From assembly GCA_903925435.1 (NCBI GenBank), contig CAIYFF010000072.1:1-27986 (forward strand): a DNA stretch of 27,986 nucleotides, in the 5' to 3' direction. Shown piece after piece: positions 3,788 to 16,248 of the stretch (positions are counted from its first letter, which is position 1; the number at the start of each line of letters is the position of its first letter). This stretch comes from an uncultured Planctomycetota bacterium (lineage in GTDB: Bacteria > Planctomycetota > UBA1135 > UBA2386). The translations under genes were made by a program, and so were the position numbers. A model generated the notes under the pieces. It was given only the letters and a program-made list of their open reading frames with translations. It was not told where the DNA came from and searched no databases.

Positions 3788-6258
3788 TGGCGCTGTCTCG
3801 TTGGGAGTTCGCGATTGCATTGTGTGTCGCCAACGCTTGCGCATCGCTCGCGATGGCGCAGGGGCCAGAGCCTGATGCGGGACTGGTTGCGCTTCACCAA
3901 GCGAGGCTCGACGCAGTGACGAGCGGCGTCGTGCTCAACATCGCGGCCCATCCCGACGACGAAGCGTCGCGCACCAACACGATCCTGCGGCGCAAGCACG
4001 CTCTCCGCGTCGTGACTGCGTATTCGACGTATGGCGACGGTGGGCAGAACGCGATCGGCAAGGAGATCGGCCCCGAGCTCGCGCAGTTGCGCGTGCGCGA
4101 GACGCTCGCGGCCGCCGCGATGATGGACTTCGAAGTGCGCTGGCTCGGCATGCGCGACTTCGGGTTCTCCAAGTCGCTCGACGAGACGCTCGCGGTGTGG
4201 GGCAAGGACGCGCTGCTTGATGCGATGCGCAAGGTCGTCGATGAAGTCGATCCCGACTTCGTCGTGACCAACCACGATCTTGTGCACGGCCACGGCCATC
4301 ACCGCGCGTCGTTCTGGGCGATCTCCGAGGTGATCGAAGAGCGCCGCAAGGCAGGCAAGCACGCGCCTGCGTTGTATTCGCGTTGCAGCCTCGAAGAAGC
4401 GCAGTGGACCGTCGATCCAGGCGAGTTGGATCCTGTCCGCGGCGAGACCTACGCGCGGCTCGCGCATCGCGCGTGGACGCAGCACGTGACGCAGGGGCCG
4501 TGGAGCGGGCACGAGCCGCTGCAGGTGGGCAAGGACTACTGGAAGCTCATGCTGCCTGCGGGCGCGCCGAAGGACGTCGCCGCGCAGCCGTTGTCGTTCG
4601 TCCGGCCGCGCTTTGCGCGCGCTGCGGAGAGTCTCGCAACGGAGATCGGCGGCGTGATGCTGGACAGCCCCATTGCGTCGGTGGAGGCGAGGGCAGCCAC
4701 TGCGCTGCGCAAGCTGCGCGAATGGGCGAAGCCGCTCGACTTCTACACGGGCATCCATCCGCAACTCGAAGTGAAGGACGAGTCGAAGCGCCGCATCGAT
4801 GCGTTGCAGCGCGTGTTGCTCAGCGAGGCTGGCGTGCGCGTCGAAGCGTGGCTCGAGGAGTCGGAGGTGCCGCGCGGCGGCGAAGGCAAGGCGTATGTGG
4901 TCGTGCACGGCATGGAGCGCGTGCAAAACCTCGTGGTCCGTTGCGGCGACAAGGACGCGGAGCCGGTCGCGCCGCGCATTCGCAGCACGTTCTTTGACGC
5001 GATGCCCGCTGTGCCCGTTGGCGCGACGCCTGCGGATCTTGGTATCGGCAACGGCGCGACGCCCGCGAAGGGCGCTGCGCCTGCAGTGCCGGCGCCGCCG
5101 CCGATTCCTGTCCCTGGTCGGCTCGCGCTTTCGTTCCTCAACGCGAAGCCCATCGCGCGCGCGCCGGAGGTGGACATGGTGACGATCGACGTGGCGTTCG
5201 ACCTCGTCGGCGTCGAGGCTCCGATGGAGCCTGGCATCCACTACCTCACCGCGCCGACGCAAACGGTGCGCATCGAGATGCAGCGCAAGCTCGCGTTCTC
5301 GACCGTCGAGCCCGTGGAAGTCACGTGGGATCGCGAGGTCGTGCTCGCGCCCAATGACCGCGCATCCGAACGCATCTTCAGCGCCAGCGTGCGCAGCAAG
5401 CTCTCGGAAGGTCTCGCCGAACCGATCCGCGTCGTGACAGGCGCCGGCATTCGCGCGGAAGCGATTCCGAGCCGAGTGTCGCTGTCGAAGGACCACGCAG
5501 AGGCGCGAGTTCTCGTTCGCGCGTCGATCGACGGCGCCGCGCTGTCGAGCGATCCTGCGATTCGGCTCGAAGTCGGCGGCCAGAAGGCGTCGCTGCGCAT
5601 CGTGCCGGTCGAAGTGTTCGTTCCTCCCGGTTTGCGCATCGGCCTCGTGCGCGGCCCCGACGACACGATCGAGCGCACGCTCGCCGATCTCGGCATCGCG
5701 TACTCGCAACTCGATCGCGATGCGCTCGCGACCGCGAGGCTCGACGAGTTCTCGGCGCTGTTGCTCGACATGCGCAGCTACCACCACGTGCCTGAGCTTG
5801 CCGAGCACAAGGATCGCATCCTGCAGTACTGCCGCGCGGGTGGCCGCGTCGTCGCGATGTACCACAAGCCTGGCGAATGGAACGAGCGCGCAGGGCATCC
5901 TTTGCTCGCGCCGTTTGCGCTGACGGTCGGCAACGATCGCTGCACGGAAGAAGACAGCGCGGTCGTGATGCTGCAGCCGCAACATTCGATCTGGACCAAG
6001 CCGCACGCGATCACGATGCAGGACTTCGAAGGTTGGACCCAAGAGCGCGGCCTCAACTTCCCCAGCAAGTGGGACACGGCGTGGACGCCGCTGCTGGAGA
6101 CGAAGGACCGGGCGGACGAGAAGGCGAGCCAAGGCGCATTGCTGCACACGCAGTATGGCCGCGGCGACTTCGTCTATTGCTCGCTCGCGCTGTATCGCCA
6201 ATTGCGCAACGGCCACGCGGGCTCAGCGCGCATTTTGGTCAACCTGCTCGCGCGGTGA
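3787..6258 (+). CDS. Secreted PIG-L/LmbE-family deacetylase with beta-rich middle domains and C-terminal class I glutamine-amidotransferase-like domain, 823 aa
   Basis: ATG overlaps the upstream TGA (TGATG, 3785-3789); signal peptide MALSRWEFAIALCVANACASLAMA-Q; AAHPDDE, GDGGQNAIG, DFGFSKS and HGHHR motifs; C-terminal F.GW.QERGL.FP..WD and SLALYRQL..G..G..RI..NLL typical of long LmbE-like proteins. Confidence 0.88.
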   Translation: MALSRWEFAIALCVANACASLAMAQGPEPDAGLVALHQARLDAVTSGVVLNIAAHPDDEASRTNTILRRKHALRVVTAYSTYGDGGQNAIGKEIGPELAQLRVRETLAAAAMMDFEVRWLGMRDFGFSKSLDETLAVWGKDALLDAMRKVVDEVDPDFVVTNHDLVHGHGHHRASFWAISEVIEERRKAGKHAPALYSRCSLEEAQWTVDPGELDPVRGETYARLAHRAWTQHVTQGPWSGHEPLQVGKDYWKLMLPAGAPKDVAAQPLSFVRPRFARAAESLATEIGGVMLDSPIASVEARAATALRKLREWAKPLDFYTGIHPQLEVKDESKRRIDALQRVLLSEAGVRVEAWLEESEVPRGGEGKAYVVVHGMERVQNLVVRCGDKDAEPVAPRIRSTFFDAMPAVPVGATPADLGIGNGATPAKGAAPAVPAPPPIPVPGRLALSFLNAKPIARAPEVDMVTIDVAFDLVGVEAPMEPGIHYLTAPTQTVRIEMQRKLAFSTVEPVEVTWDREVVLAPNDRASERIFSASVRSKLSEGLAEPIRVVTGAGIRAEAIPSRVSLSKDHAEARVLVRASIDGAALSSDPAIRLEVGGQKASLRIVPVEVFVPPGLRIGLVRGPDDTIERTLADLGIAYSQLDRDALATARLDEFSALLLDMRSYHHVPELAEHKDRILQYCRAGGRVVAMYHKPGEWNERAGHPLLAPFALTVGNDRCTEEDSAVVMLQPQHSIWTKPHAITMQDFEGWTQERGLNFPSKWDTAWTPLLETKDRADEKASQGALLHTQYGRGDFVYCSLALYRQLRNGHAGSARILVNLLAR

Positions 6259-6264
6259 GCGAGC

Positions 6265-7593
6265 TCACAGTCGCTGCGTGACGCAGCCCGTTGCGCGCGC
6301 TTCGAACGGCGTCGCGGCAAGGTCGACGACGAAGCCTTGCCACGTGACGTCGACAGCGCCGTAGCTGCGCAAGAACGCGCGCGTGGCGGTGCTCATCGGG
6401 ACCATCGCTTGGAAGCGACCGAACGCGTTGGTGGTGCCGAAGAACGTGATGCCGTTCGGATCCGCGAGATCGACGCAGACGTTGCCGCCGCTGCCGGGTG
6501 CGCCAAATCCTGGGATCTGCGCCACGGGCTGCGAGCCGTCCGCATTGCTGCCGCCGAGGAGCGGCCCGAAGGACAGCCGCGCGAGCGCGATCGCGTTGGG
6601 GCGCTGGCCGTCGGTGATCAAGAAGCCGATGTCGTCAGCTCGCGCGAACGACGATGGCGGCGGCGGAATCAGCGCGGTTGCGTCGTGCAGGTCTGGGTGC
6701 AGCCCCGACAGCATGTTCGTCGTGCCGCCGAGTGGAACGCGCGCCGTTGGGCTCGGCGACGTCAGCGCGCGGCTCGTTGCGTAGTAGAGCTGGTTGGTCT
6801 GCGTGACGGCGACGCCGCCTGGCGCATACGTCAGCACGTCGAGGTCGAGTTGGCGGTAGTCGCCGCGGCGCCCGGCAATGCCGGGGAATAGCGCAGCCGC
6901 GCCAGTCGGCAGTGGGAACGCGCCGCCGGTGGTTGCGACCGTGCACACGAGGTTGGGCGGCAACGGGCTCGCGGGCAGGCGCGGGCCCACGACGTCGCGC
7001 GGCGTCGCGGCGGTCACGTTGGGCATGAAGTCCGCGGTGATGCGACAGCCGAGGCCTTCGTTGGGCCATGTGCCCGCTTGCAGGCCAATGCCGAGATAGA
7101 GGTCGTCGTCGGTCGGCCCGTGCGATGCGCCAAAGCGCGCGGGAGTGGGCGGTGGATTGATGCCGACGAGCAGCGTGTGGACTGCAGGCCCCGTCGATGC
7201 GTTGGGCGGCGTGTTGATGCGACCGGTGCGAAACCAGACGCCGGCGCCGTTGCTGCGCACATCGGGCCGCCCCGGTTGCAGCGGATCGTCGAGATAGCCG
7301 ACCAGCGTGTACTGCTCTGGCGTGAAGCCGACTTGGTCTTGCACGACGACGCGCAGTCCGACGATGCGGCGCGCTTGCCCCGTGGGATCCGCGGGATCCA
7401 CGAACGCGTGGCGATAGTGGCGGCCCGAGAACACCTGCAGCAGATCGACGTTGGTCGTGTCTGCGCCGCCGCGATCGGTGTAGGACGTCTCGAAGCCCGC
7501 GGTGAAGCCGAGGAAGTGCGCGGCTTGCGCGGTGGCGGTGTGTGCGCCGCACGCAATCGCGCACAGCAGCAACGCGACTGCGCGCGGATTCAC
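6265..7593 (-). CDS. Secreted hypothetical protein, paralog B (442 aa)
   Basis: GTG start overlapping the upstream TGA (GTGA 7590-7593); signal peptide MNPRAVALLLCAIACGAHTATA-Q; collinear along its whole length with the 8128-9453 product. Confidence 0.88.
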   Translation of the reverse strand: MNPRAVALLLCAIACGAHTATAQAAHFLGFTAGFETSYTDRGGADTTNVDLLQVFSGRHYRHAFVDPADPTGQARRIVGLRVVVQDQVGFTPEQYTLVGYLDDPLQPGRPDVRSNGAGVWFRTGRINTPPNASTGPAVHTLLVGINPPPTPARFGASHGPTDDDLYLGIGLQAGTWPNEGLGCRITADFMPNVTAATPRDVVGPRLPASPLPPNLVCTVATTGGAFPLPTGAAALFPGIAGRRGDYRQLDLDVLTYAPGGVAVTQTNQLYYATSRALTSPSPTARVPLGGTTNMLSGLHPDLHDATALIPPPPSSFARADDIGFLITDGQRPNAIALARLSFGPLLGGSNADGSQPVAQIPGFGAPGSGGNVCVDLADPNGITFFGTTNAFGRFQAMVPMSTATRAFLRSYGAVDVTWQGFVVDLAATPFEARATGCVTQRL

Positions 7594-8147
7594 CGGCGCG
7601 CGCCTTGCTGTTGCTGCGCCTTCTCGCGTTCGGCGATCGCTTCGTCGGCCGTCTGCGCCGGCGAGCCCTTGCCTTCGCGCGCGAGGATCGGCGTCGCCTG
7701 CGGCACGCCGTTCATGTCGACCATCTTGACCGTGGTCCACGCGCCATCTTGATGCTTCCACCACCACCAACCGTTGTGGAAGACCTTGTCCACGATCGGC
7801 GAGTAGGGTTGCTCGTCCCACATCAGCGCGATGTCGTCCGTGACATCGTTGATCGCTTCGATGGTGGAGCCATCAGGCAACGTGACCTTGCCGGGGCGCG
7901 CGCCGTTCGTGAGCGTGAAGGCGCTCGCGGGCTTCTGCGTCGCGGCCGCGGCCTCGGACGGCTTCGCAGGCGGCGTGGCCTGCGCAGGAGCAGGGGCTTC
8001 CTGCGCAGGGGGCACGGGTGTCGCGTCCGGTTGCGCGGGCGCGACCACCTCGCGGCTCATCACCAGATAGATGGCGACCGCCGCGCCCGCGGTGACAAGC
8101 ATCGCGAGCGGGTAGATGGCCTTTCGATCAGAGGTGCTGGATGACAC
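7590..8147 (-). CDS. Small membrane-anchored hypothetical protein (TM helix, Pro/Ala linker, WWWW-containing domain), 185 aa; alternative start ATG 8102
   Basis: Hydrophobic helix LAMLVTAGAAVAIYLVM; PAQ-rich linker; good codon bias; overlaps both neighbours. Confidence 0.82.
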   Translation of the reverse strand: MSSSTSDRKAIYPLAMLVTAGAAVAIYLVMSREVVAPAQPDATPVPPAQEAPAPAQATPPAKPSEAAAATQKPASAFTLTNGARPGKVTLPDGSTIEAINDVTDDIALMWDEQPYSPIVDKVFHNGWWWWKHQDGAWTTVKMVDMNGVPQATPILAREGKGSPAQTADEAIAEREKAQQQQGARR

Positions 8148-9453
8148 AGCCGGTGGCCTTCACCTCGGACGGGCTCGTCGCGAGATTGACGACATAGCCT
8201 TGCCAGTGCAGGTCCACCGCGCCGTAGGACGCGAGGAACGCGCGGGCCGGCGCGCTCAGCGGGAACATCTGCTGGCAGCGGCCGTTCGCGTCCGTGAAGT
8301 TGATGAACGTGAACGCGCTCGGGTCGGCGAGATCGATGCAGACGTTGCCGGCGCTCGTGGCGGCGTTGAAGCCGGGGATGAACGCGATCGGCACCGAGCC
8401 ATCCGGGTTGAAGCCGCCGACCAACGGGCCGAACGCGAGGCGGATGACCGCGAGCGAGTTCGGGCGGTTGCGCTCCGTGATCAGGAAGCCAATGTCATCC
8501 GCGCGAGCGGGCGCGCCAACGGGCGGGGGCAGCGTGCCGGTTGCGTCGTTCACGTCCGGGTTGTTGCCCGAGAGCATGTTCGTCGTGCCGCCAGCCGGAA
8601 CCTGCGTGGCCGCGTTGACGAGCGGCGGGTTGCGGAGGTTGCTCGACGGGTAGCGGATCTGGTTGGTCTGCGTCACCGCGACGCCGCCCGTGGTGAGCGC
8701 GAGGATGTCGAGGTTGAGCTGGCGGTAGCCGCCGCGCGAGCCGGCGGTGCCGGGGAATGCCGGGATCTGGCCGGTCGGCAGTGGCGTTGCGCCACCGGTC
8801 GTGGCGACCGTGCAGACCAGGTTGCGGATGTTCGTGTTACCCGGCAGGCGCGGGCCGACGACGTCGAGCGAGTTGGTGCCCACATTGCCGAGGTTGAAGT
8901 CGAACGACATCCAGCAGCCGAGGCCGTCTGCGGGCCACGTGCCGTTGCGCAGGCCGATGCCGAGGTAGACGTCGTCGTCCGTCGGGCCGTGCGCGGCGCC
9001 GAAGTTCATCGGCGTGGCCGGCGGGTTGATGCCGTAGGTGATCGTCCAGAACGCAGGGCCGGTCGCGGTGCTCGGCGGCGTGTTGATGAGTCCCGTGCGG
9101 AACCAGACGCCAGTGCCGTTCGCGTTCGAGTCAGGCTGGCCAGGAGCCAACGGGTCGTCCTTGTAGCCGACCAACGTGTACTGCTCTGCCGTGTTGCCGA
9201 TCTGATCCTGAACGTTGAATCGGAAGCCGACGAGGCGCTTGCTCGCGCCGAGTGGATCTGCCGGATTGATCAGGAAGTGGCGGTAGTCGCGCGTTGCGAA
9301 GACCTGAAGGATGTCGACGTCGAGCGCGTTGATGGTGGCGCGGTCGGTGTACGACGTATCGAAGCCGCCATTGAAGCCGAGGAAGTTGGCGAGCTGTGCG
9401 GGGAGCGCGCTCGACAAGGAGGCAACGAGGGACAGTGCGAGGATGGAACGCAT
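8128..9453 (-). CDS. Secreted hypothetical protein, paralog A (441 aa)
   Basis: ATG at 9453; signal peptide MRSILALSLVASLSSALPA-Q; N/T/G/P-rich mature part with strongly biased codons (aac, ttc, acc). Confidence 0.9.
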   Translation of the reverse strand: MRSILALSLVASLSSALPAQLANFLGFNGGFDTSYTDRATINALDVDILQVFATRDYRHFLINPADPLGASKRLVGFRFNVQDQIGNTAEQYTLVGYKDDPLAPGQPDSNANGTGVWFRTGLINTPPSTATGPAFWTITYGINPPATPMNFGAAHGPTDDDVYLGIGLRNGTWPADGLGCWMSFDFNLGNVGTNSLDVVGPRLPGNTNIRNLVCTVATTGGATPLPTGQIPAFPGTAGSRGGYRQLNLDILALTTGGVAVTQTNQIRYPSSNLRNPPLVNAATQVPAGGTTNMLSGNNPDVNDATGTLPPPVGAPARADDIGFLITERNRPNSLAVIRLAFGPLVGGFNPDGSVPIAFIPGFNAATSAGNVCIDLADPSAFTFINFTDANGRCQQMFPLSAPARAFLASYGAVDLHWQGYVVNLATSPSEVKATGCVIQHL

Positions 9454-9520
9454 GGGGATGGTTCTTGGGTGCACAGGGACGGCCCGGCTCCAGGGGGTGA
9501 AGCGGGCGAAGGAGCGGCGA

Positions 9521-9549
9521 ATCCTACGCATGCCGCGCGCTGGTGGGAA
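9521..9549 (-). promoter_or_regulatory. Candidate sigma70-like promoter for paralog A (TTCCCA-N17-TAGGAT)
   Basis: Minus strand 4/6 and 4/6 matches to TTGACA/TATAAT at 17-bp spacing, about 70 nt upstream of ATG 9453. Confidence 0.3.
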
Positions 9550-9636: not shown

Positions 9637-12261
9637 TCACGCTCCCTGTGCTGCGCGCGGCGCAGTCAGGGCTGCCATGGCATAGAGCCCGGCCGCCACG
9701 AGGGTGACGACGAAGAACCCGCCTTCCATCGCAACCAGGATGCTGAGGATCGACGCCATCACCGAGGCGGCGCCGTTCACGCCGAACGCCCAACCGATCA
9801 TGCCCTGCTGCTCGTTGCGCAGCAGTGAGAGGCCCGTCGGGAACGGGATGCCCATCGCGAACGCGAGCGGTGCGATCGTCGCCATCGTGACGACGATGCG
9901 CAGCGGCTCCGACCACGCGAGCGTCGATTGCAGCACGGCGGGCAGCAGCAGCGCCTGCAGCAGCAGCAACACGACCACGGCAAAGCCAGCGCGCATCGCG
10001 CCGCGTTGGCCGAGGCCCTTCTTGCCAGCCCACGACGAGCCGAGGCCCGAGAACAGCAAGAAGCTGCAGAGGCCGACGCTGAGCGAGTAGGTCGGGTGGC
10101 CGAGGTAGAGCACGAAGCGCTGGATCGTGCTGATCTCGACCAGCAAGTAGGCGAGGCCGAGCGCCGAGAAGAAGGCGATCACGCGCAGGCGCGAGTTGGC
10201 GGAGCCCGCCTTCGTCGAGAAGCCGAGGCGGAACATCGGCAGCAGGATCAGCAGCGCGGTCGCGATCAGCGTCTGCACGAACAGCGCGGCGAGGATGTAG
10301 AGGCCGATGGGCTCGCTGCCCGTCAGCGCTGCGTAGCCGTCCTTGCCCTTCGACGTGAACGAGAGGTCATTCCACGAGTTGAAGTTGAAGAAGAACGGCT
10401 TGTCGTCGGTCGCCGGATGCGTGCGGTACTGGTAGCCGTCGTGGAACGCTTGCTCCGCTTCGGGGCCCTTCGCTGCGGCATCGAGCAGTTGGCTGTACTC
10501 GTTGTTCTCGCCCTTGAGTCCCGCGGCGTAGTAGAGGACGTGGTTGGTCTTCGGCGCGTTGAGCGGCGGCAGGTAGGCCTCGATCTTTGCGACGTCTTCC
10601 TTCGTGAAGGGCGTTTTGCGCATCAGCACCGCCGCGTAGCGCATCGGATGCTCGTAGTCGCGCGACATGCGCTCCTTGAGCTCGGTGAAGTTCTTGATGT
10701 GCTCGAGGCCCTGCGCGCCCTTCAGCTCCTTGGCGAAGTCCATCATCTGGCCGTCTTCTTGGTTGACGACCAAGAAGTGCTTGCGCGGGTCCGTGATGCC
10801 GAGCTTGCGCAGCGCGCGCGCCGCGGTCGCGACGAGCTTGAGTTCTTCGCGCGGCGGCTCGAAGCGGAAGCGGATCACCGTGATCACGCCGTCATCCGCC
10901 ATGTGCGCGAAGAAGTCGTCGAACGCTTCGATCGTGTAGAGGTAGCTCTCGCTGAAGATGTAGCTGCCCGACGACAGAGCTGAGTAGGTGTCGGTGCCCG
11001 ACATCTGCAGCAAGTCGAACTTCTTGCCTGAACGGCGCAGGTAGCTGCGGCCTTCGGACTTCACCCACGTCACGCCGGGGCGGTCGTAGATGTGGTTGGT
11101 GTAGGCGCCGAACTTGCCGCGCACGAGGTCGATCGTGTCGCCGTTGATGTCGACGGCCGTGATCGTCTTTGCGCCGCACGCGAGCCCGGTCTCGATGTCG
11201 TTGCCGCCACCGGGGCCGATGATCAGCGCGTTGGGATCCTTCACGAGCTGGTAGCCGAGGCCGTACCAGTGCTTCTTGTAGTCGAGTTCCTTCGCGTAGC
11301 CGCCGGACCAGATCTTGGTCGGCGCATCGCCATCCTGGAACACGTGCACTTCGGTGCGCGGGCCGCTCGTCGGGTTGTCGCGGTCCTTCGCCGCATTGCC
11401 GGGCGTCGGGTTCATCGGCAGCGTGTCGATGCGACACGTCGGGCTCCACACCGTGGAGCGCAGGCTCATGTCCAACTCGGGATACTTCGGATCCTGCGTC
11501 TTGCGCAGGTAGTCGGTCATGCCCTCGTAGAAGAGGTCCATGGTGCCGAGCATCTTGCTCTTCGCTGGCTCGATCGGGAGCAAGCGATTGGTCGCTTCCG
11601 GGAACGCCATCGACAGCGGCCAGATCGCGATCGTCAGCAGCGCGAGCGCGCGCATCAGGGTCGTCATCGAACCGCGCGAACCAAGGGTCGATGCGAGGCC
11701 TGCGATGCCGCCGAGCGCCGCAAACAGATAGAGGCAGCCAGGTCCGCCGAGCGGGCGCACCAGCAACACGAACAAGAAGCTGCCGATCGCGGAGCCGATC
11801 AGGTTCCAGAAGTACGTGCGGTGCACGATCGCCGCGTGTTGCTGCAGCGCGATCGAGATCGCGAGGCCAGCGAACAAGAACGGCACGATCAGGTACGCGT
11901 AGCGCAGGAACAGCAGCAGGTACTTGCTGCGGTCCTGTTCGATGTCGAGCGTGTCGAGCGGCGTGTGGCACAGCACCATGAACGCGCCGATCAAGCTGAT
12001 GCCGAACATGCTGCAGCAGAACGACACAGCCTTCTGCGAGTCGCCGAACATGCGCCCGATGCTCGGGAACATGCCGAGCAGTCCGCCGCCGGCGCCGAAG
12101 CCGAGCAACGTGACGGTGACCACCATGTAGGTGAGGTGGTGCCACAGCATCACGCTGAAGAGGCGCGTCTGCAGGACTTGCACTGCGAGCGTCGCAGCCG
12201 AGATCAGCGCGACCGCGAGCAATATGCCGCGGGTCGACTGCGGCGATTCGGAATGGGTCAT
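9637..12261 (-). CDS. Polytopic membrane protein with central class I SAM-dependent methyltransferase (spermidine-synthase-like) domain, 874 aa
   Basis: Multiple TM helices at both ends; QDGDAPT; SAM motif I LIIGPGGGNDI; AVDING; EGRSYLRR...FDLLQMSGTDT; ESYLYTIEAF; FFFNF; LAYLLVEI; GIPFPTGL; W.FGVNG.ASV. Confidence 0.88.
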   Translation of the reverse strand: MTHSESPQSTRGILLAVALISAATLAVQVLQTRLFSVMLWHHLTYMVVTVTLLGFGAGGGLLGMFPSIGRMFGDSQKAVSFCCSMFGISLIGAFMVLCHTPLDTLDIEQDRSKYLLLFLRYAYLIVPFLFAGLAISIALQQHAAIVHRTYFWNLIGSAIGSFLFVLLVRPLGGPGCLYLFAALGGIAGLASTLGSRGSMTTLMRALALLTIAIWPLSMAFPEATNRLLPIEPAKSKMLGTMDLFYEGMTDYLRKTQDPKYPELDMSLRSTVWSPTCRIDTLPMNPTPGNAAKDRDNPTSGPRTEVHVFQDGDAPTKIWSGGYAKELDYKKHWYGLGYQLVKDPNALIIGPGGGNDIETGLACGAKTITAVDINGDTIDLVRGKFGAYTNHIYDRPGVTWVKSEGRSYLRRSGKKFDLLQMSGTDTYSALSSGSYIFSESYLYTIEAFDDFFAHMADDGVITVIRFRFEPPREELKLVATAARALRKLGITDPRKHFLVVNQEDGQMMDFAKELKGAQGLEHIKNFTELKERMSRDYEHPMRYAAVLMRKTPFTKEDVAKIEAYLPPLNAPKTNHVLYYAAGLKGENNEYSQLLDAAAKGPEAEQAFHDGYQYRTHPATDDKPFFFNFNSWNDLSFTSKGKDGYAALTGSEPIGLYILAALFVQTLIATALLILLPMFRLGFSTKAGSANSRLRVIAFFSALGLAYLLVEISTIQRFVLYLGHPTYSLSVGLCSFLLFSGLGSSWAGKKGLGQRGAMRAGFAVVVLLLLQALLLPAVLQSTLAWSEPLRIVVTMATIAPLAFAMGIPFPTGLSLLRNEQQGMIGWAFGVNGAASVMASILSILVAMEGGFFVVTLVAAGLYAMAALTAPRAAQGA

Positions 12262-12397: not shown

Positions 12398-14356
12398 TCA
12401 TCGCGAGTAGCGCTCCCGTTCGTGCGCGGAAATCGCCGCGGCAAGCCGCTGCATCGCGTCGGCCGCGATCGGCATGGCCTGCGCGCGCAGTAGCAGTTCG
12501 CGCGGCGTCTCCCCGTGCACAAGTTGAACGTGCGCGCGCCGCATCGCCGCGTCGAGCGCGCGGACTGTGAGCGGAATGCGCTGGTTCTTCACATGGCGTC
12601 GCCAGAACGACAGCATCGAAAGCAATGCGAGCAAAGCCGCGCATTCGATCGGGCTCGTGAGGAATGCGACCACGGTCTCGCCGAGGCTGCGGCCGATCGC
12701 CGAGAACAACGCCGCGCGCTCGGCTTCGCCGAAGCCGGTCACGTTGGCCCACGCTTCTTCGAGCCACTTGCGCATGTCGGCGAGCATGCCTGACTCATGG
12801 GCGCCGCCTTCGTCCGCCATTGCGGGCGTTGCGTCGAGCGTGGTCCAGCCGGCCCCAGGCAGCCACGCCTCGACCCACGCGTGCGCGTGACGCTGGCGGA
12901 CGACGTAGGCGCCGGACGATGCGTCGCGTTCTTGCGCGAGGTAGCCGCCGATCACGCGGCACGGGATCGACTGCATGCGCAGCACGAGGCACAGCGCCGT
13001 GGCGAAGTACTCGCAGTGGCCGCCGCCCGAACCGAGCAAGAAGTCGTCGAGGCTGCGAGCCGCCGCGGGCGTGCCGGGCAGCGCGTAGCGACGTTCTGCC
13101 GACAGCCAATCGCGCGCGTGCTCGGCGCGTCGCTGTGGGCTCGCGTCCGCTGGCAGCGTGCGGCGAAGTTCTTCTTCGAGAGCAACCAGCGGCGATGGCA
13201 GTCGTTCTGGCGTTTGCGTCAGGATCGCGCGCGCAGCGGGCGTCAGTTCTCCAAACGCCGCGACCTCGCTCGCGCGCACCGAGAAGCGAACTTCGCGCGG
13301 CCCTTCGCCGAACTCCACGAGCGCCACGACGCCATCCGCCTTCGGATCGACCAGCGCGCCAGCGGTGAAGTGCAAGTCGAAGGACTCGGCTTCCAGCGGC
13401 AAGAAGAGTCGATTGGCGCTCGTGTCGAGCAGCGTGACGGTGACCGCATCGCTGTCGTTGGCTGCTGCTGCGTCGCGACGACGGCCTTCGTCGCGCGACG
13501 AGGCGCGAACCCAGCGAGTGGCCGAGGTCCCGCTCCACGGAATGTCCGTCGCAGTGCGCGTTCCGAATTCGCGGATGCGGAACGGCTGCCAGCCCGCGCC
13601 ATCGAAGTTGACGAACGTGGCGCCGCGCCAATGCGTCGGCGTGTTCGCTTCGCCCTTGCTCGCGATGCGCATCACCGGCGCGTCGCTGAGTGTCGGAGTC
13701 GTCGAGCGGTCGATCCGCACTTGGTCTGCGAACGCGACCACGGGCGCGCCGCCAAACTGCATGGAGTCGCCGAGCCAGCCCTCGCGCTTGAAGTCGCGTG
13801 GCCACAGCGCGAACACCAAAGCGGTCGCGAGCAGCGCTGCGGCGCTGCGCCAGAGCCCGTTCTGAATCAGCGCGCGCACGGCGCCGCGCGGTTGTTCACC
13901 GCTGCGCGGAAGGCACACGTGCAACTGCAGCGCGAGCACGAGCAGCGCCGCATACGCGAAGAACGCAATCGACCAGCCGAGGTCGCCGCAGAAGAAGCTC
14001 GTGACGAACGCGATGAGGAACGAGTTGAAGAACAACAGGTCCGGGCGCTGCTTCTGGCCGATGTTGTTGAGCAGGTGCACTTGGCACAGCGCGGAGAGCA
14101 GCAGCCCGTCTTCGAGCATGTGCAGCAACCCGCTGGTGACCGCGTCGTGCACGAGGAACGCAAACGAAGCGAGGACTGCGGCGTTCCAGATGCCTCGATA
14201 GACCGGGCTCTCGGCGAACCGCGCAAACAGCGGCGTCGCGGCAGCGCAGGACCACAAGGCCCACAGCCACGGCGAAGTCACGGTGCCGGTCAACTGCACG
14301 AACGCGAGGTCGAGCAGCACGATGCCCAAGAACAGCCAGCGCAATGCACTAGGCAT
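12398..14356 (-). CDS. Transglutaminase-like domain membrane protein (DUF3488/TgpA-type), 652 aa
   Basis: About 6 N-terminal TM helices; HWRGATFVNFDG..W; catalytic triad motifs GHCEYFATA, HAWVE, LDATP; C-terminal TM and ETPRE motif. Start overlaps the DUF58 stop by 8 bp. Confidence 0.9.
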   Translation of the reverse strand: MPSALRWLFLGIVLLDLAFVQLTGTVTSPWLWALWSCAAATPLFARFAESPVYRGIWNAAVLASFAFLVHDAVTSGLLHMLEDGLLLSALCQVHLLNNIGQKQRPDLLFFNSFLIAFVTSFFCGDLGWSIAFFAYAALLVLALQLHVCLPRSGEQPRGAVRALIQNGLWRSAAALLATALVFALWPRDFKREGWLGDSMQFGGAPVVAFADQVRIDRSTTPTLSDAPVMRIASKGEANTPTHWRGATFVNFDGAGWQPFRIREFGTRTATDIPWSGTSATRWVRASSRDEGRRRDAAAANDSDAVTVTLLDTSANRLFLPLEAESFDLHFTAGALVDPKADGVVALVEFGEGPREVRFSVRASEVAAFGELTPAARAILTQTPERLPSPLVALEEELRRTLPADASPQRRAEHARDWLSAERRYALPGTPAAARSLDDFLLGSGGGHCEYFATALCLVLRMQSIPCRVIGGYLAQERDASSGAYVVRQRHAHAWVEAWLPGAGWTTLDATPAMADEGGAHESGMLADMRKWLEEAWANVTGFGEAERAALFSAIGRSLGETVVAFLTSPIECAALLALLSMLSFWRRHVKNQRIPLTVRALDAAMRRAHVQLVHGETPRELLLRAQAMPIAADAMQRLAAAISAHERERYSR

Positions 14357-15305
14357 GGGCGGCTCCTCCTGCGCAAACGGTCAGCAGTTGCGCGCGCTGC
14401 GATGCGGCGGGTGGCGCAACTGCGTCGTGTGGCAACGTCGAGGCTGTCGCGAGCCAACGCAGCAACGGCGCGGGCTCAGGTCGATCCGCATCGAGCGCGA
14501 GGTCTGCGTCCTGGCTGCGCAGTCGCAGCGCCTGCTTCGTCTTTGCTGCATCGAGCACAAGCCGCGTCGCGATCGACAGCGCGCGTTCGAGCGACGCTGC
14601 GTCGCAGCGACGATCGATGACGAGGTCGACGCCTTCGCCGCCATGGCGCTCGTACTCCTTGACGATCGGCGAGCCGCGACGCGCGGTCGCCTTCCAGTGG
14701 ATCTGGCGCAGGCTGTCGCCATCGCGCCAGTCGCGGAGGCCCGCGAGGGACTCCTCGTCGCCGCCAGGTGGGCGATTGCCATCGCCGCCGCGGCCACGTT
14801 GCGAGGGGTCTTCGGGCGCAGCGGGCGTTGGATACGCGATTGCTTCACCGCGAACGGTGACGACCTGCTCCGCCATGCAAACGCCAAACGGATGACGCGA
14901 GCGAATGCGCAGTCGTTCGATCGCATGTGCGCCGCGCGGCATGCCCTTCAGCGCAGCCGTCACGGTCTCGCCGTCGGAGACGACCGGCAGTTCGGCAATG
15001 CAGATCGACTTGCCCGCTGCGTCCGCATGCACGAGCACGCCAAACGCGCGCCGGCCTTTTGGCATCGTGATGCGCACGCGCATCGGATGCGGCGATCCTG
15101 CGGGCGCAGGCTCGATCGCAAGCAGCTCCGCGCTCGCGCCGCGCAAGTTGCGCCATGAGCCGGTGACGCCGAGCGCGCCGAGGATGGCGAGGAACGACGT
15201 CAGCAGGAAGAACAGGTTGGAGTATGGCGTCGCGAAGAACAGCAACACTACGGCTGCGAAGAACAACCCGCCCTTCGCTCCAAGGCCTGTCGGCGAGAGT
15301 CGCAT
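14349..15305 (-). CDS. DUF58 domain-containing protein, 318 aa
   Basis: N-terminal TM pair with NLFFL; RG...I....SRHPFG; LRDWRDGDSLRQIHWKATARRG.PIVKEYE; LERALSIA. Sits directly downstream of MoxR. Confidence 0.9.
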   Translation of the reverse strand: MRLSPTGLGAKGGLFFAAVVLLFFATPYSNLFFLLTSFLAILGALGVTGSWRNLRGASAELLAIEPAPAGSPHPMRVRITMPKGRRAFGVLVHADAAGKSICIAELPVVSDGETVTAALKGMPRGAHAIERLRIRSRHPFGVCMAEQVVTVRGEAIAYPTPAAPEDPSQRGRGGDGNRPPGGDEESLAGLRDWRDGDSLRQIHWKATARRGSPIVKEYERHGGEGVDLVIDRRCDAASLERALSIATRLVLDAAKTKQALRLRSQDADLALDADRPEPAPLLRWLATASTLPHDAVAPPAASQRAQLLTVCAGGAAHA

Positions 15306-15309
15306 CGGC

Positions 15310-16248
15310 TCACAGTGGAACGGCGGTCTTCGCGATCACTTCCTGCAGCATCGCAGCAGCGCTGCCGCCGCCGCGAACGAACATGCGGTGCGCGAGCACG
15401 GGCATGGCGAGCGCCTTCAGGTCGTCCGGCAACACGTAGTCGCGGCCTTCGAGCCATGCGCGCGCACGAGCTGCGCGCAGCCACATCAACGCGGCGCGCG
15501 GACTCGCGCCGAGCGCGACCTCGGTGTGCTCGCGCGTCGCCGCGACGATGCGCAGCACGTACTCGGCCACCGTTTCGTGCACGACAACCTCGGCTGCAGC
15601 AGCTTGCGCCGCGAGCAGTTGGTCGCGCGAGATCACGGGGTGCACGGAGCGCAGCGAGCTCTCCGCATCGCGGCCGGTGTAGAGCGCGAGTTCTTGCGCG
15701 CTGTCTGGATAGCCCAGCTCGATGCGGACGAGGAAACGATCGAGCGCCGCTTCCGGCATCGGATACGTGCCGTGGAACTCGATCGGGTTGCGCGTCGCAA
15801 ACACATGGAACGGCGCGCCGAGGTCCATCGTCTTGCCTTCGAGCGAGACCGAGCCGGACTCCATCGCTTCGAGCAAGCACGACAAGGTGCGCGGGCTCGT
15901 GCGGTTGATCTCGTCCGCGAGCACGAGGTTGGAGAACAACGGGCCTTCGACGAACTCGAACTGGCGCTCGCGCTCGCGCCAAACTGCGCTGCCGAGGATG
16001 TCGCTCGGCATCAGGTCATTGGTGAACTGGATGCGGCGGAAGCTGCAGTCGATGCTCGCGGCGATCGTGCGCGCGAGCAGCGTCTTGCCGATGCCAGGCT
16101 TGCCGTCGAGCAGCACGTGGCCCCGCGCGATGAGTGCGCAGAGGATCGCTTCGAACGCGTCCGAAGGGACGGCGACGATGTCGCGGACATTGCGTTCGAG
16201 GGTCGTGCGCAGCGCCTTTGGCGCTACGGCTGCAGTGCTCAGTGCCAA
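15310..16248 (-). CDS. moxR: MoxR-family AAA+ ATPase, 312 aa
   Basis: TTG start with GGAGG SD (16257-16261); Walker A GKPGIGKT; RIQFT.DL.PSDI.G; Walker B LADEINR; NPIE..GTYP.PEA.LDRF; GASPRA; GRDYV.PDD.K.LA.PVLAHR. Confidence 0.93.
   Translation of the reverse strand: MALSTAAVAPKALRTTLERNVRDIVAVPSDAFEAILCALIARGHVLLDGKPGIGKTLLARTIAASIDCSFRRIQFTNDLMPSDILGSAVWRERERQFEFVEGPLFSNLVLADEINRTSPRTLSCLLEAMESGSVSLEGKTMDLGAPFHVFATRNPIEFHGTYPMPEAALDRFLVRIELGYPDSAQELALYTGRDAESSLRSVHPVISRDQLLAAQAAAAEVVVHETVAEYVLRIVAATREHTEVALGASPRAALMWLRAARARAWLEGRDYVLPDDLKALAMPVLAHRMFVRGGGSAAAMLQEVIAKTAVPL

Follow-up and report, generated by a model that had tools for sequence, protein, structure and literature searches.

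The DNA considered here, hereafter the window, is a stretch of 27,986 nucleotides (nt) from an uncultured Planctomycetota bacterium (contig CAIYFF010000072.1 of assembly GCA_903925435.1), and we were interested in three genes that lie end to end on its minus strand. The first of these (pos1; protein P0001, paralogue A of a preliminary description of this DNA) occupies positions 8128-9453 and encodes a large protein of 441 amino acids (aa). It is followed by a small partner gene (7590-8147; P0002), which encodes 185 aa if read from the GTG at 8147 or 170 aa if read from the ATG at 8102, and then by a second large gene (pos2; 6265-7593; P0003, the earlier paralogue B), which encodes 442 aa from a GTG, a length also given by the stored database gene call. 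The order, strand and sizes agree with the preliminary description, which had placed the identity of the two large proteins at 55-65% and listed sequence blocks common to them. The blocks are present, and in a BLASTP alignment that runs the full length of the two proteins 61% of the 418 aligned residues are identical, with two gaps. The 20-nt exact repeat reported at the same time (6710-6729 = 8573-8592) is the longest word common to the DNA of the two genes; it encodes GGTTNML in both paralogues, and the pos1 copy (8573-8592) falls in the inter-domain segment described below.

The gene junctions agree with the earlier account only in part. The 4-bp GTGA overlap, in which the TGA stop of the small gene meets the GTG start of pos2, is present, but the 20-bp overlap of pos1 with the small gene requires the uncertain GTG start at 8147. 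In the stored gene call the small protein starts at the ATG at 8102 (170 aa), leaving a 25-bp gap after pos1. Conservation of an 'SSSTS' N-terminus is no proof of the GTG start, because this reading frame overlaps the highly conserved C-terminus of pos1.

Identity between pos1 and pos2 is 0.67, 0.77 and 0.58 at the first, second and third codon positions, and comparison of orthologous large genes gives a ratio of nonsynonymous to synonymous divergence (dN/dS) of 0.12-0.26 (0.12-0.25 for pos2). Given these values, pos1 and pos2 are real genes under constraint, and their likeness is not due to chance. For the small gene the ratio is 0.25-0.49, with a stalk region that evolves fast, and all three genes are under purifying selection. 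In all genome pairs compared, the synonymous divergence (dS) of pos1 is below that of pos2, as one would expect if pos1 were the more strongly expressed of the two.

The conserved unit is the pair of a large and a small gene, not the trio. When fetched loci were scanned with profile hidden Markov models of both families, the small gene was found directly after the large gene, on the same strand, in all 18 distinct loci that had a full-length large gene and downstream DNA. The large-small-large arrangement, which the preliminary description treated as the unit, occurs in five of these 18 (the window, L001, L004, L019 and L022, which are close relatives), and most pair-bearing genomes have a single large gene. 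In a phylogenetic tree all pos2 copies group together (support 100/100), and their sister group (89/86) is made up of the pos1 copies and two single-copy genes. Judging by this tree, the second large gene is the product of one duplication. The duplication is either older than the single-copy lineages, with loss there, or it took place later and was followed by faster evolution of pos2. Translational coupling, also proposed earlier, is not a conserved property of the locus either. The gaps between the two genes range from -20 to +128 bp, some paralogue pairs are convergent or divergent, and the overlaps are not conserved.

The pairing extends far beyond close relatives. Other genomes contain diverged paralogues, with ten matches to the large-protein profile in one genome of 7.9 Mb, and in about 12 of 18 deeply diverged paralogue loci there is an adjoining small-gene homologue, whether downstream on the same strand, convergent or divergent. 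Locus L044 (G402:C1:378641-386042) has two tandem divergent large-family genes and then one small-family gene; it represents a second, independent case of two large genes with one small gene, in an order (large-large-small) that differs from the trio of the window. When about 400 genomes of the phylum were searched in turn with the small protein, clear matches came only from the window's genome and two genomes of the same family. Three of these four matches adjoin a clear large-family gene, and the fourth adjoins a weak candidate. Adjacency persists down to about 25-30% identity and through several independent rearrangements, and clear family members stand alone only as secondary-looking copies or ones truncated at the end of a contig. 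The taxonomic family also includes a complete single-contig genome, G157, which has two divergent pairs and may be that of a cultured strain. Distances among large proteins are correlated with those among their small partners (r 0.71, a value reached in 0 of 2000 permutations), and shared phylogeny contributes to this correlation.

We regard strict pairing through deep paralogy as a real finding. The preliminary description had named the absence of the middle gene beside homologues elsewhere as a result that would speak against a common system; its presence in every informative locus, beside most deep paralogues and in the reciprocal search strongly favours a functional link between the large and small genes. 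A near-complete genome of the same family (G119) has an open reading frame (ORF) of about 395 aa between two small-family genes (L050:2154-3338, plus strand). Its signal peptide ends in PAQ and its match to the large-family profile is weak (hhalign probability 31%, E 5e-4), and it may be a very divergent member of the large family.

Both families are absent from the curated libraries searched and are thus uncharacterised. Scans of the three proteins against Pfam and NCBIfam at E values up to 1 gave no usable family, those with PADLOC and PHROGs gave no usable match, and a family profile had no match among PDB sequences at E values up to 10; as the preliminary description had supposed, no characterised family explains the pair. 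Two candidates fell on the low-complexity stalk of the small protein and were dismissed as noise, namely the domain of unknown function (DUF) DUF6476 (E 0.76) and BamI (E 0.006, with 16 bits where the cut-off is 180). HMMER, run exhaustively over 1.84 billion representative proteins, found 43 relatives, and word-seeded searches of 5.8 billion clusters found about 30 large-protein and 20 small-protein clusters, all of them unnamed or labelled 'hypothetical protein'. Three deep protein searches, including one with a profile of divergent members, named no homologue beyond that label. Feature searches of the ESM Atlas returned only unnamed Planctomycetota clusters, with named matches at 0.81, which is the chance level.

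The two-gene module occurs in a minority of Planctomycetota. Its carriers are metagenome-assembled genomes (MAGs) from lakes, rivers and activated sludge, and one of them, a bin from Lake Biwa, is labelled CL500-15, a lineage described as often particle-associated in deep lakes (PMC5607371). The genome to which the window belongs is a 62.6%-complete MAG with only one locus of the family.

The large protein begins with a predicted Sec-type signal peptide (aa 1-20 of pos1), and in the alignment the signal peptides of the whole family end in an invariant Ala-Gln. A Sec signal by itself delivers a protein no further than the periplasm. The signal is followed, on the minus strand, by a putative jelly-roll, lectin-like beta-sandwich domain (8689-9393, aa 21-255) with invariant QDQ, WFR and WP.DG motifs, by an inter-domain segment or linker (8503-8673, aa 261-317), and by a C-terminal domain resembling immunoglobulin (Ig) or fibronectin type III folds (8131-8502, aa 318-441), which has a conserved ATGC..QHL C-terminus. 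Pos2 shares this architecture. The AlphaFold2 model of pos1 has a pTM of 0.75 and a mean pLDDT of 69. About 47 columns are invariant, many of them polar (R38, D47, Y57, Q82-D83-Q84, R119, W173, D197, R317 and D319 among them), and several of the blocks listed in the preliminary description are invariant across the family. The strongest conservation is found in the linker motifs TQTNQ, GGTTNMLSG, PD and RADD, even though this segment is modelled with a pLDDT below 50. Given that the linker is so conserved yet does not fold alone in the model, we suspect an interface here, or a site for a ligand or a metal.

Four cysteines are indeed common to pos1 and pos2, which had been taken as consistent with two disulfides, but only C372 and C436 are invariant family-wide. 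These two probably close the C-terminal domain. C179 is confined to a close subclade, and pos1 carries a fifth cysteine, C392. In 31 family members Lys makes up at most 1.1% and Glu mostly less than 2% of residues, compared with 1-4% and 4-7% for neighbouring genes. The proteins are rich in Gly, Thr, Asn and Pro, and mature pos1 has an isoelectric point (pI) of about 5.0. A Lys- and Glu-poor composition rich in these four residues is typical of extracytoplasmic beta-rich structural or binding proteins. Domain-level fold searches gave jelly-roll and Ig matches for the large protein, and whole-chain searches (Foldseek against PDB, AlphaFold DB clusters, BFVD and the ESM Atlas) gave no match with a TM-score above 0.41. 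Within the 62%-complete host genome the N-domain has no match elsewhere, and a shared C-terminal sorting module was considered and rejected, the last 124 residues matching no other protein of that genome. In structure, this end of the protein is only weakly similar to the C-terminal sandwiches of other proteins.

The small protein is predicted to be a single-pass membrane protein. A putative transmembrane helix (aa 16-30; 8058-8102, minus strand) lies in a hydrophobic peak at residues 10-30 and leads into a Pro/Ala-rich stalk of about 55 residues (aa 31-85; 7893-8057, minus), which is disordered in the model. Beyond the stalk is a small beta domain (aa 86-157; 7677-7892, minus) modelled with a pLDDT of about 83. 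It contains GWWWWKH.DG...NGVPQ motifs, in which Trp, His, Asp and Asn-Gly-Val positions are invariant, and structure searches gave no fold match for it, including none to an Ig fold. The C-terminus is a helix with a basic tail. The layout of an N-terminal anchor and a Pro-rich spacer is conserved in 22 homologues and fits the membrane anchor that the preliminary description saw in the middle protein, although the topology is a prediction from these features.

The locus is transcribed in lakes. Its sequence is present in 20 sequencing runs, most of them from lake water, and six of these are metatranscriptomes. We placed four lake metatranscriptome runs on 10 kb of the window and read the contig depth. 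In the four runs RNA contig depth was about 109, 16, 19-39 and 10-36 on pos1, 3-27 on the small gene and 0-20 on pos2, and it was 0 on the side of the neighbouring PIG-L gene (4334-6337), which argues against DNA carry-over as the source of the RNA. A 1491-nt RNA contig of a close relative covers pos1 and the small gene, with a diverged stalk region. Given that the RNA runs were chosen with this stretch and that contig depth is a poor measure of expression, we limit our claim to transcription of the locus and the dominance of pos1 within it. The depth of pos1, well above that of pos2, and its lower dS fit the 'major and minor' part of the earlier proposal that the large proteins are major and minor subunits.

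Alignment of related loci suggests that the module has its own promoter. A promoter-like element on the minus strand (9521-9549), consisting of TTCCCA (9549-9544), a 17-nt spacer and TAGGAT (9526-9521), lies about 70-95 nt upstream of pos1. It is kept in six related loci amid divergent intergenic DNA, with invariant GGTT..C and TAG..T columns, and RNA depth climbs downstream of it. The predicted transcription start would be near 9514, about 7 nt beyond TAGGAT. A scan for consensus promoters and terminators near the trio found nothing, the TTCCCA-17-TAGGAT element being below the threshold of the scanner. Farther upstream, sharp depth peaks of 113 and 87 were seen in two lake metatranscriptomes (X17 and X18) at 9678-10011, inside the 3' end of the next gene (that of the 874-aa membrane protein described below), between flanking bins near zero. 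This peak could come from a small stable RNA or from a conserved piece of foreign origin; an Rfam scan found no RNA family at this place or anywhere else in the window.

An all-against-all comparison of neighbouring genes revealed no third recurrent partner outside the close clade. Within that clade the pair is syntenic with genes for a MoxR AAA+ ATPase, a DUF58 protein, a TgpA-like transglutaminase, an 874-aa membrane protein and PIG-L; we regard this association as lineage synteny only. The MoxR, DUF58 and TgpA genes form an operon upstream of the trio (12398-16248, minus strand) that is conserved in close relatives, and a MoxR-like gene also adjoins the pair in L024; no evidence of a functional link with the pair was found. 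The 874-aa polytopic protein (9637-12261, minus strand) has no Pfam match. Its residues 344-460 show a weak spermidine-synthase-like match (NCBIfam E 0.001, far below the cut-off), and its gene is syntenic with the pair in seven related loci and absent from L005 and from distant loci.

On the other side of the pair, single-copy relatives have a conserved protein of about 250 aa (L021:3042-3788, L008:10008-10772 and L005:9903-10721), with 37-46% identity between loci and a weak Secretin_N-like match (E 0.0013, below threshold). In trio genomes pos2 occupies the place of this gene, and in the host genome of the window domains like it occur only within larger ORFs, on contigs C521 and C523. Two single-copy relatives also have, downstream of the pair (L005:10902-12706 and L008:10949-12720), a gene for a sigma factor of the extracytoplasmic function type and one for a 411-aa protein with weak arylsulfotransferase-like beta-propeller matches. 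Both of these genes are absent from the window.

We favour, at somewhat less than an even chance, the interpretation that the large protein is an abundant binding or structural protein of the cell envelope that is held by a membrane-anchored stalk. For topology, physical contact, location and ligand we infer the following scenario. The large protein would be exported by the Sec pathway, while the small protein would sit in the cytoplasmic membrane by its one N-terminal helix, with the stalk of about 55 residues reaching into the periplasm. The small Trp-rich beta domain at the end of the stalk would bind the large protein, perhaps via the conserved linker, and the tether would hold the large protein at a fixed height in the cell envelope. 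The jelly-roll domain may bind a ligand, for which a glycan or a polymer of the envelope seems likeliest. Of the two copies, pos1 would be abundant and pos2 a low-level variant on the same tether.

In architecture the small protein has a parallel in the TonB and TolA anchors. In these, too, a single membrane helix at the N-terminus is joined by an extended Pro-rich spacer (about 55-65 residues) to a small globular domain at the C-terminus, which would reach a partner across the periplasm. However, the small protein lacks the TonB_C domain (PF03544), and neither ExbB nor ExbD is among the genes of the window or those tabulated for related loci. We therefore describe it as TonB-like in architecture only.

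A fuller version of the tether interpretation, which we consider possible but doubtful, is that planktonic and sludge Planctomycetota have an undescribed two-component envelope system in which an abundant lectin-like protein, nearly devoid of Lys and Glu, is borne on a Pro-rich stalk in the cytoplasmic membrane and forms a surface-layer (S-layer)-like or glycan-capture coat inside the unusual envelope of these bacteria, with paralogue expansions (such as the ten or so large-profile matches in one genome) leading to different specificities. The hints of an S-layer are indirect (acidic pI, Lys- and Glu-poor composition and high RNA depth). The SlaA/SlaB S-layers of Sulfolobales offer a parallel, in that adjacent genes encode a larger beta-rich exported protein, abundant and acidic, and a smaller membrane-anchored stalk protein. 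There is no homology, however, and SlaB is anchored at its C-terminus and has a coiled coil. Compared with bacterial S-layer proteins, the large protein has no S-layer homology (SLH) domain, no RTX-type signal for type I secretion and no Pfam domain, and its conserved signal is the N-terminal Sec-type one. Given that the organism is a diderm, a stalk in the cytoplasmic membrane cannot carry a layer beyond the outer membrane.

Other secreted beta-rich proteins resemble the large protein in parts. The top matches among AlphaFold DB clusters (E 3e-6 to 1e-5) are proteins with the C-terminal domain of the type IX secretion system, which are also secreted multi-beta-sandwich proteins with a terminal Ig-like domain, but the TM-scores are 0.16-0.32 and there is no match to Por_Secre_tail or TIGR04183. 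Phage tail fibres and tips have jelly-roll heads (Douge gp20, 8zdp; Bxb1, 9d93; the phi812 baseplate, 9euf). Unlike these, the proteins of the window have no PHROGs match and no phage genes nearby, and their chromosomal context is conserved among relatives. The lectin-like domain of Cwp84 from Clostridioides difficile (PDB 4d59 and 4ci7) was matched with a borderline score at 11-12% identity, with no sequence-level relation. In Cwp84 this domain stands beside a cysteine protease domain, which pos1 and pos2 lack.

Among the alternatives, the one that survives best, although we think it unlikely, is that the large protein has enzymatic activity, perhaps as a glycan hydrolase or lyase with a jelly-roll fold from a family not yet described, and that the small protein, anchored in the membrane, is an accessory for its positioning or regulation. 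In favour of this are the roughly 47 invariant columns with their many polar residues; in addition, the jelly-roll or concanavalin A (ConA)-like fold is used by several glycan-degrading enzyme families, and Planctomycetota are known polysaccharide degraders. The likeness to ConA-like lectin and glucanase proteins is nevertheless seen at the domain level of the model only, and it leads to no described lectin, carbohydrate-binding module, glycoside hydrolase or polysaccharide lyase family. The permissive Pfam and NCBIfam scans and the PDB sequence search likewise gave no match for the large protein, conservation is highest in the inter-domain linker and not in the jelly-roll sheet, and the neighbourhood of the pair has no further recurrent genes for catabolism or transport.

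We consider it improbable that regulation or history accounts for the adjacency of the two genes, with products that do not bind each other and a separate envelope role for the small protein. The variable orientation of paralogue pairs, the wide range of spacing (-20 to more than 300 bp) and the lack of conserved overlaps would be expected in this case. What speaks against it is that adjacency survives at low identity, through rearrangement and in the reciprocal search, with no clear member standing alone apart from the secondary-looking or truncated copies.

Less probable again is that the large protein is a toxin or bacteriocin released by the cell and the small one confers immunity from its place in the membrane, the pair being present as many divergent cassettes per genome as in polymorphic toxin systems. 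The order of a secreted protein and then a small membrane protein fits this explanation, as do the ten large-profile matches in one genome with partners that diverge together. Conservation is, however, full-length and collinear to the last residue, leaving no variable toxin tip, and no toxin, defence or phage family was matched. Selection on the large genes is purifying rather than diversifying (dN/dS 0.12-0.26), transcription of pos1 in lake water is steady, and a 55-residue Pro-rich stalk is unusual for immunity proteins.

The least probable of the four is a fibre or pilus in which the large proteins would be the major and minor subunits and the small protein their assembly chaperone. The expression pattern, the C-terminal Ig-like domain and the origin at least twice of two large genes per small gene (the trio and L044) would suit it, but the pair has no conserved neighbour that encodes an usher, a secretin or an assembly ATPase, no chaperone-usher system is apparent (no PapD-like Ig-fold chaperone, and no usher in any locus examined), the small-protein domain is not Ig-like and has no fold match, and most pair genomes have a single large gene. 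We leave the rest of the probability to readings beyond the tether interpretation and these four alternatives.

There are limits to the novelty of these observations. The folds are common, the function is one that we infer, and many such 'hypothetical' pairs exist; in the tether interpretation the pair would be an exported beta-sandwich protein with a membrane tether, a kind already known. Even if this interpretation is false, the family still merits a DUF-type entry, as two co-evolving families are at present without annotation.

The proteins of the planctomycetal envelope are still poorly described, and few or no members of the freshwater lineages with this pair have been cultured. Transcribed in several lakes and retained through deep paralogy, the pair is a concrete and testable candidate for an abundant envelope component. 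If the tether model is true, the pair would represent a 'protein on a stalk' that resembles TonB but serves for display and not for energy transfer, and it would provide a handle, by way of an antibody, a tag or a knock-out, with which to study how these cells bind particles and polymers.

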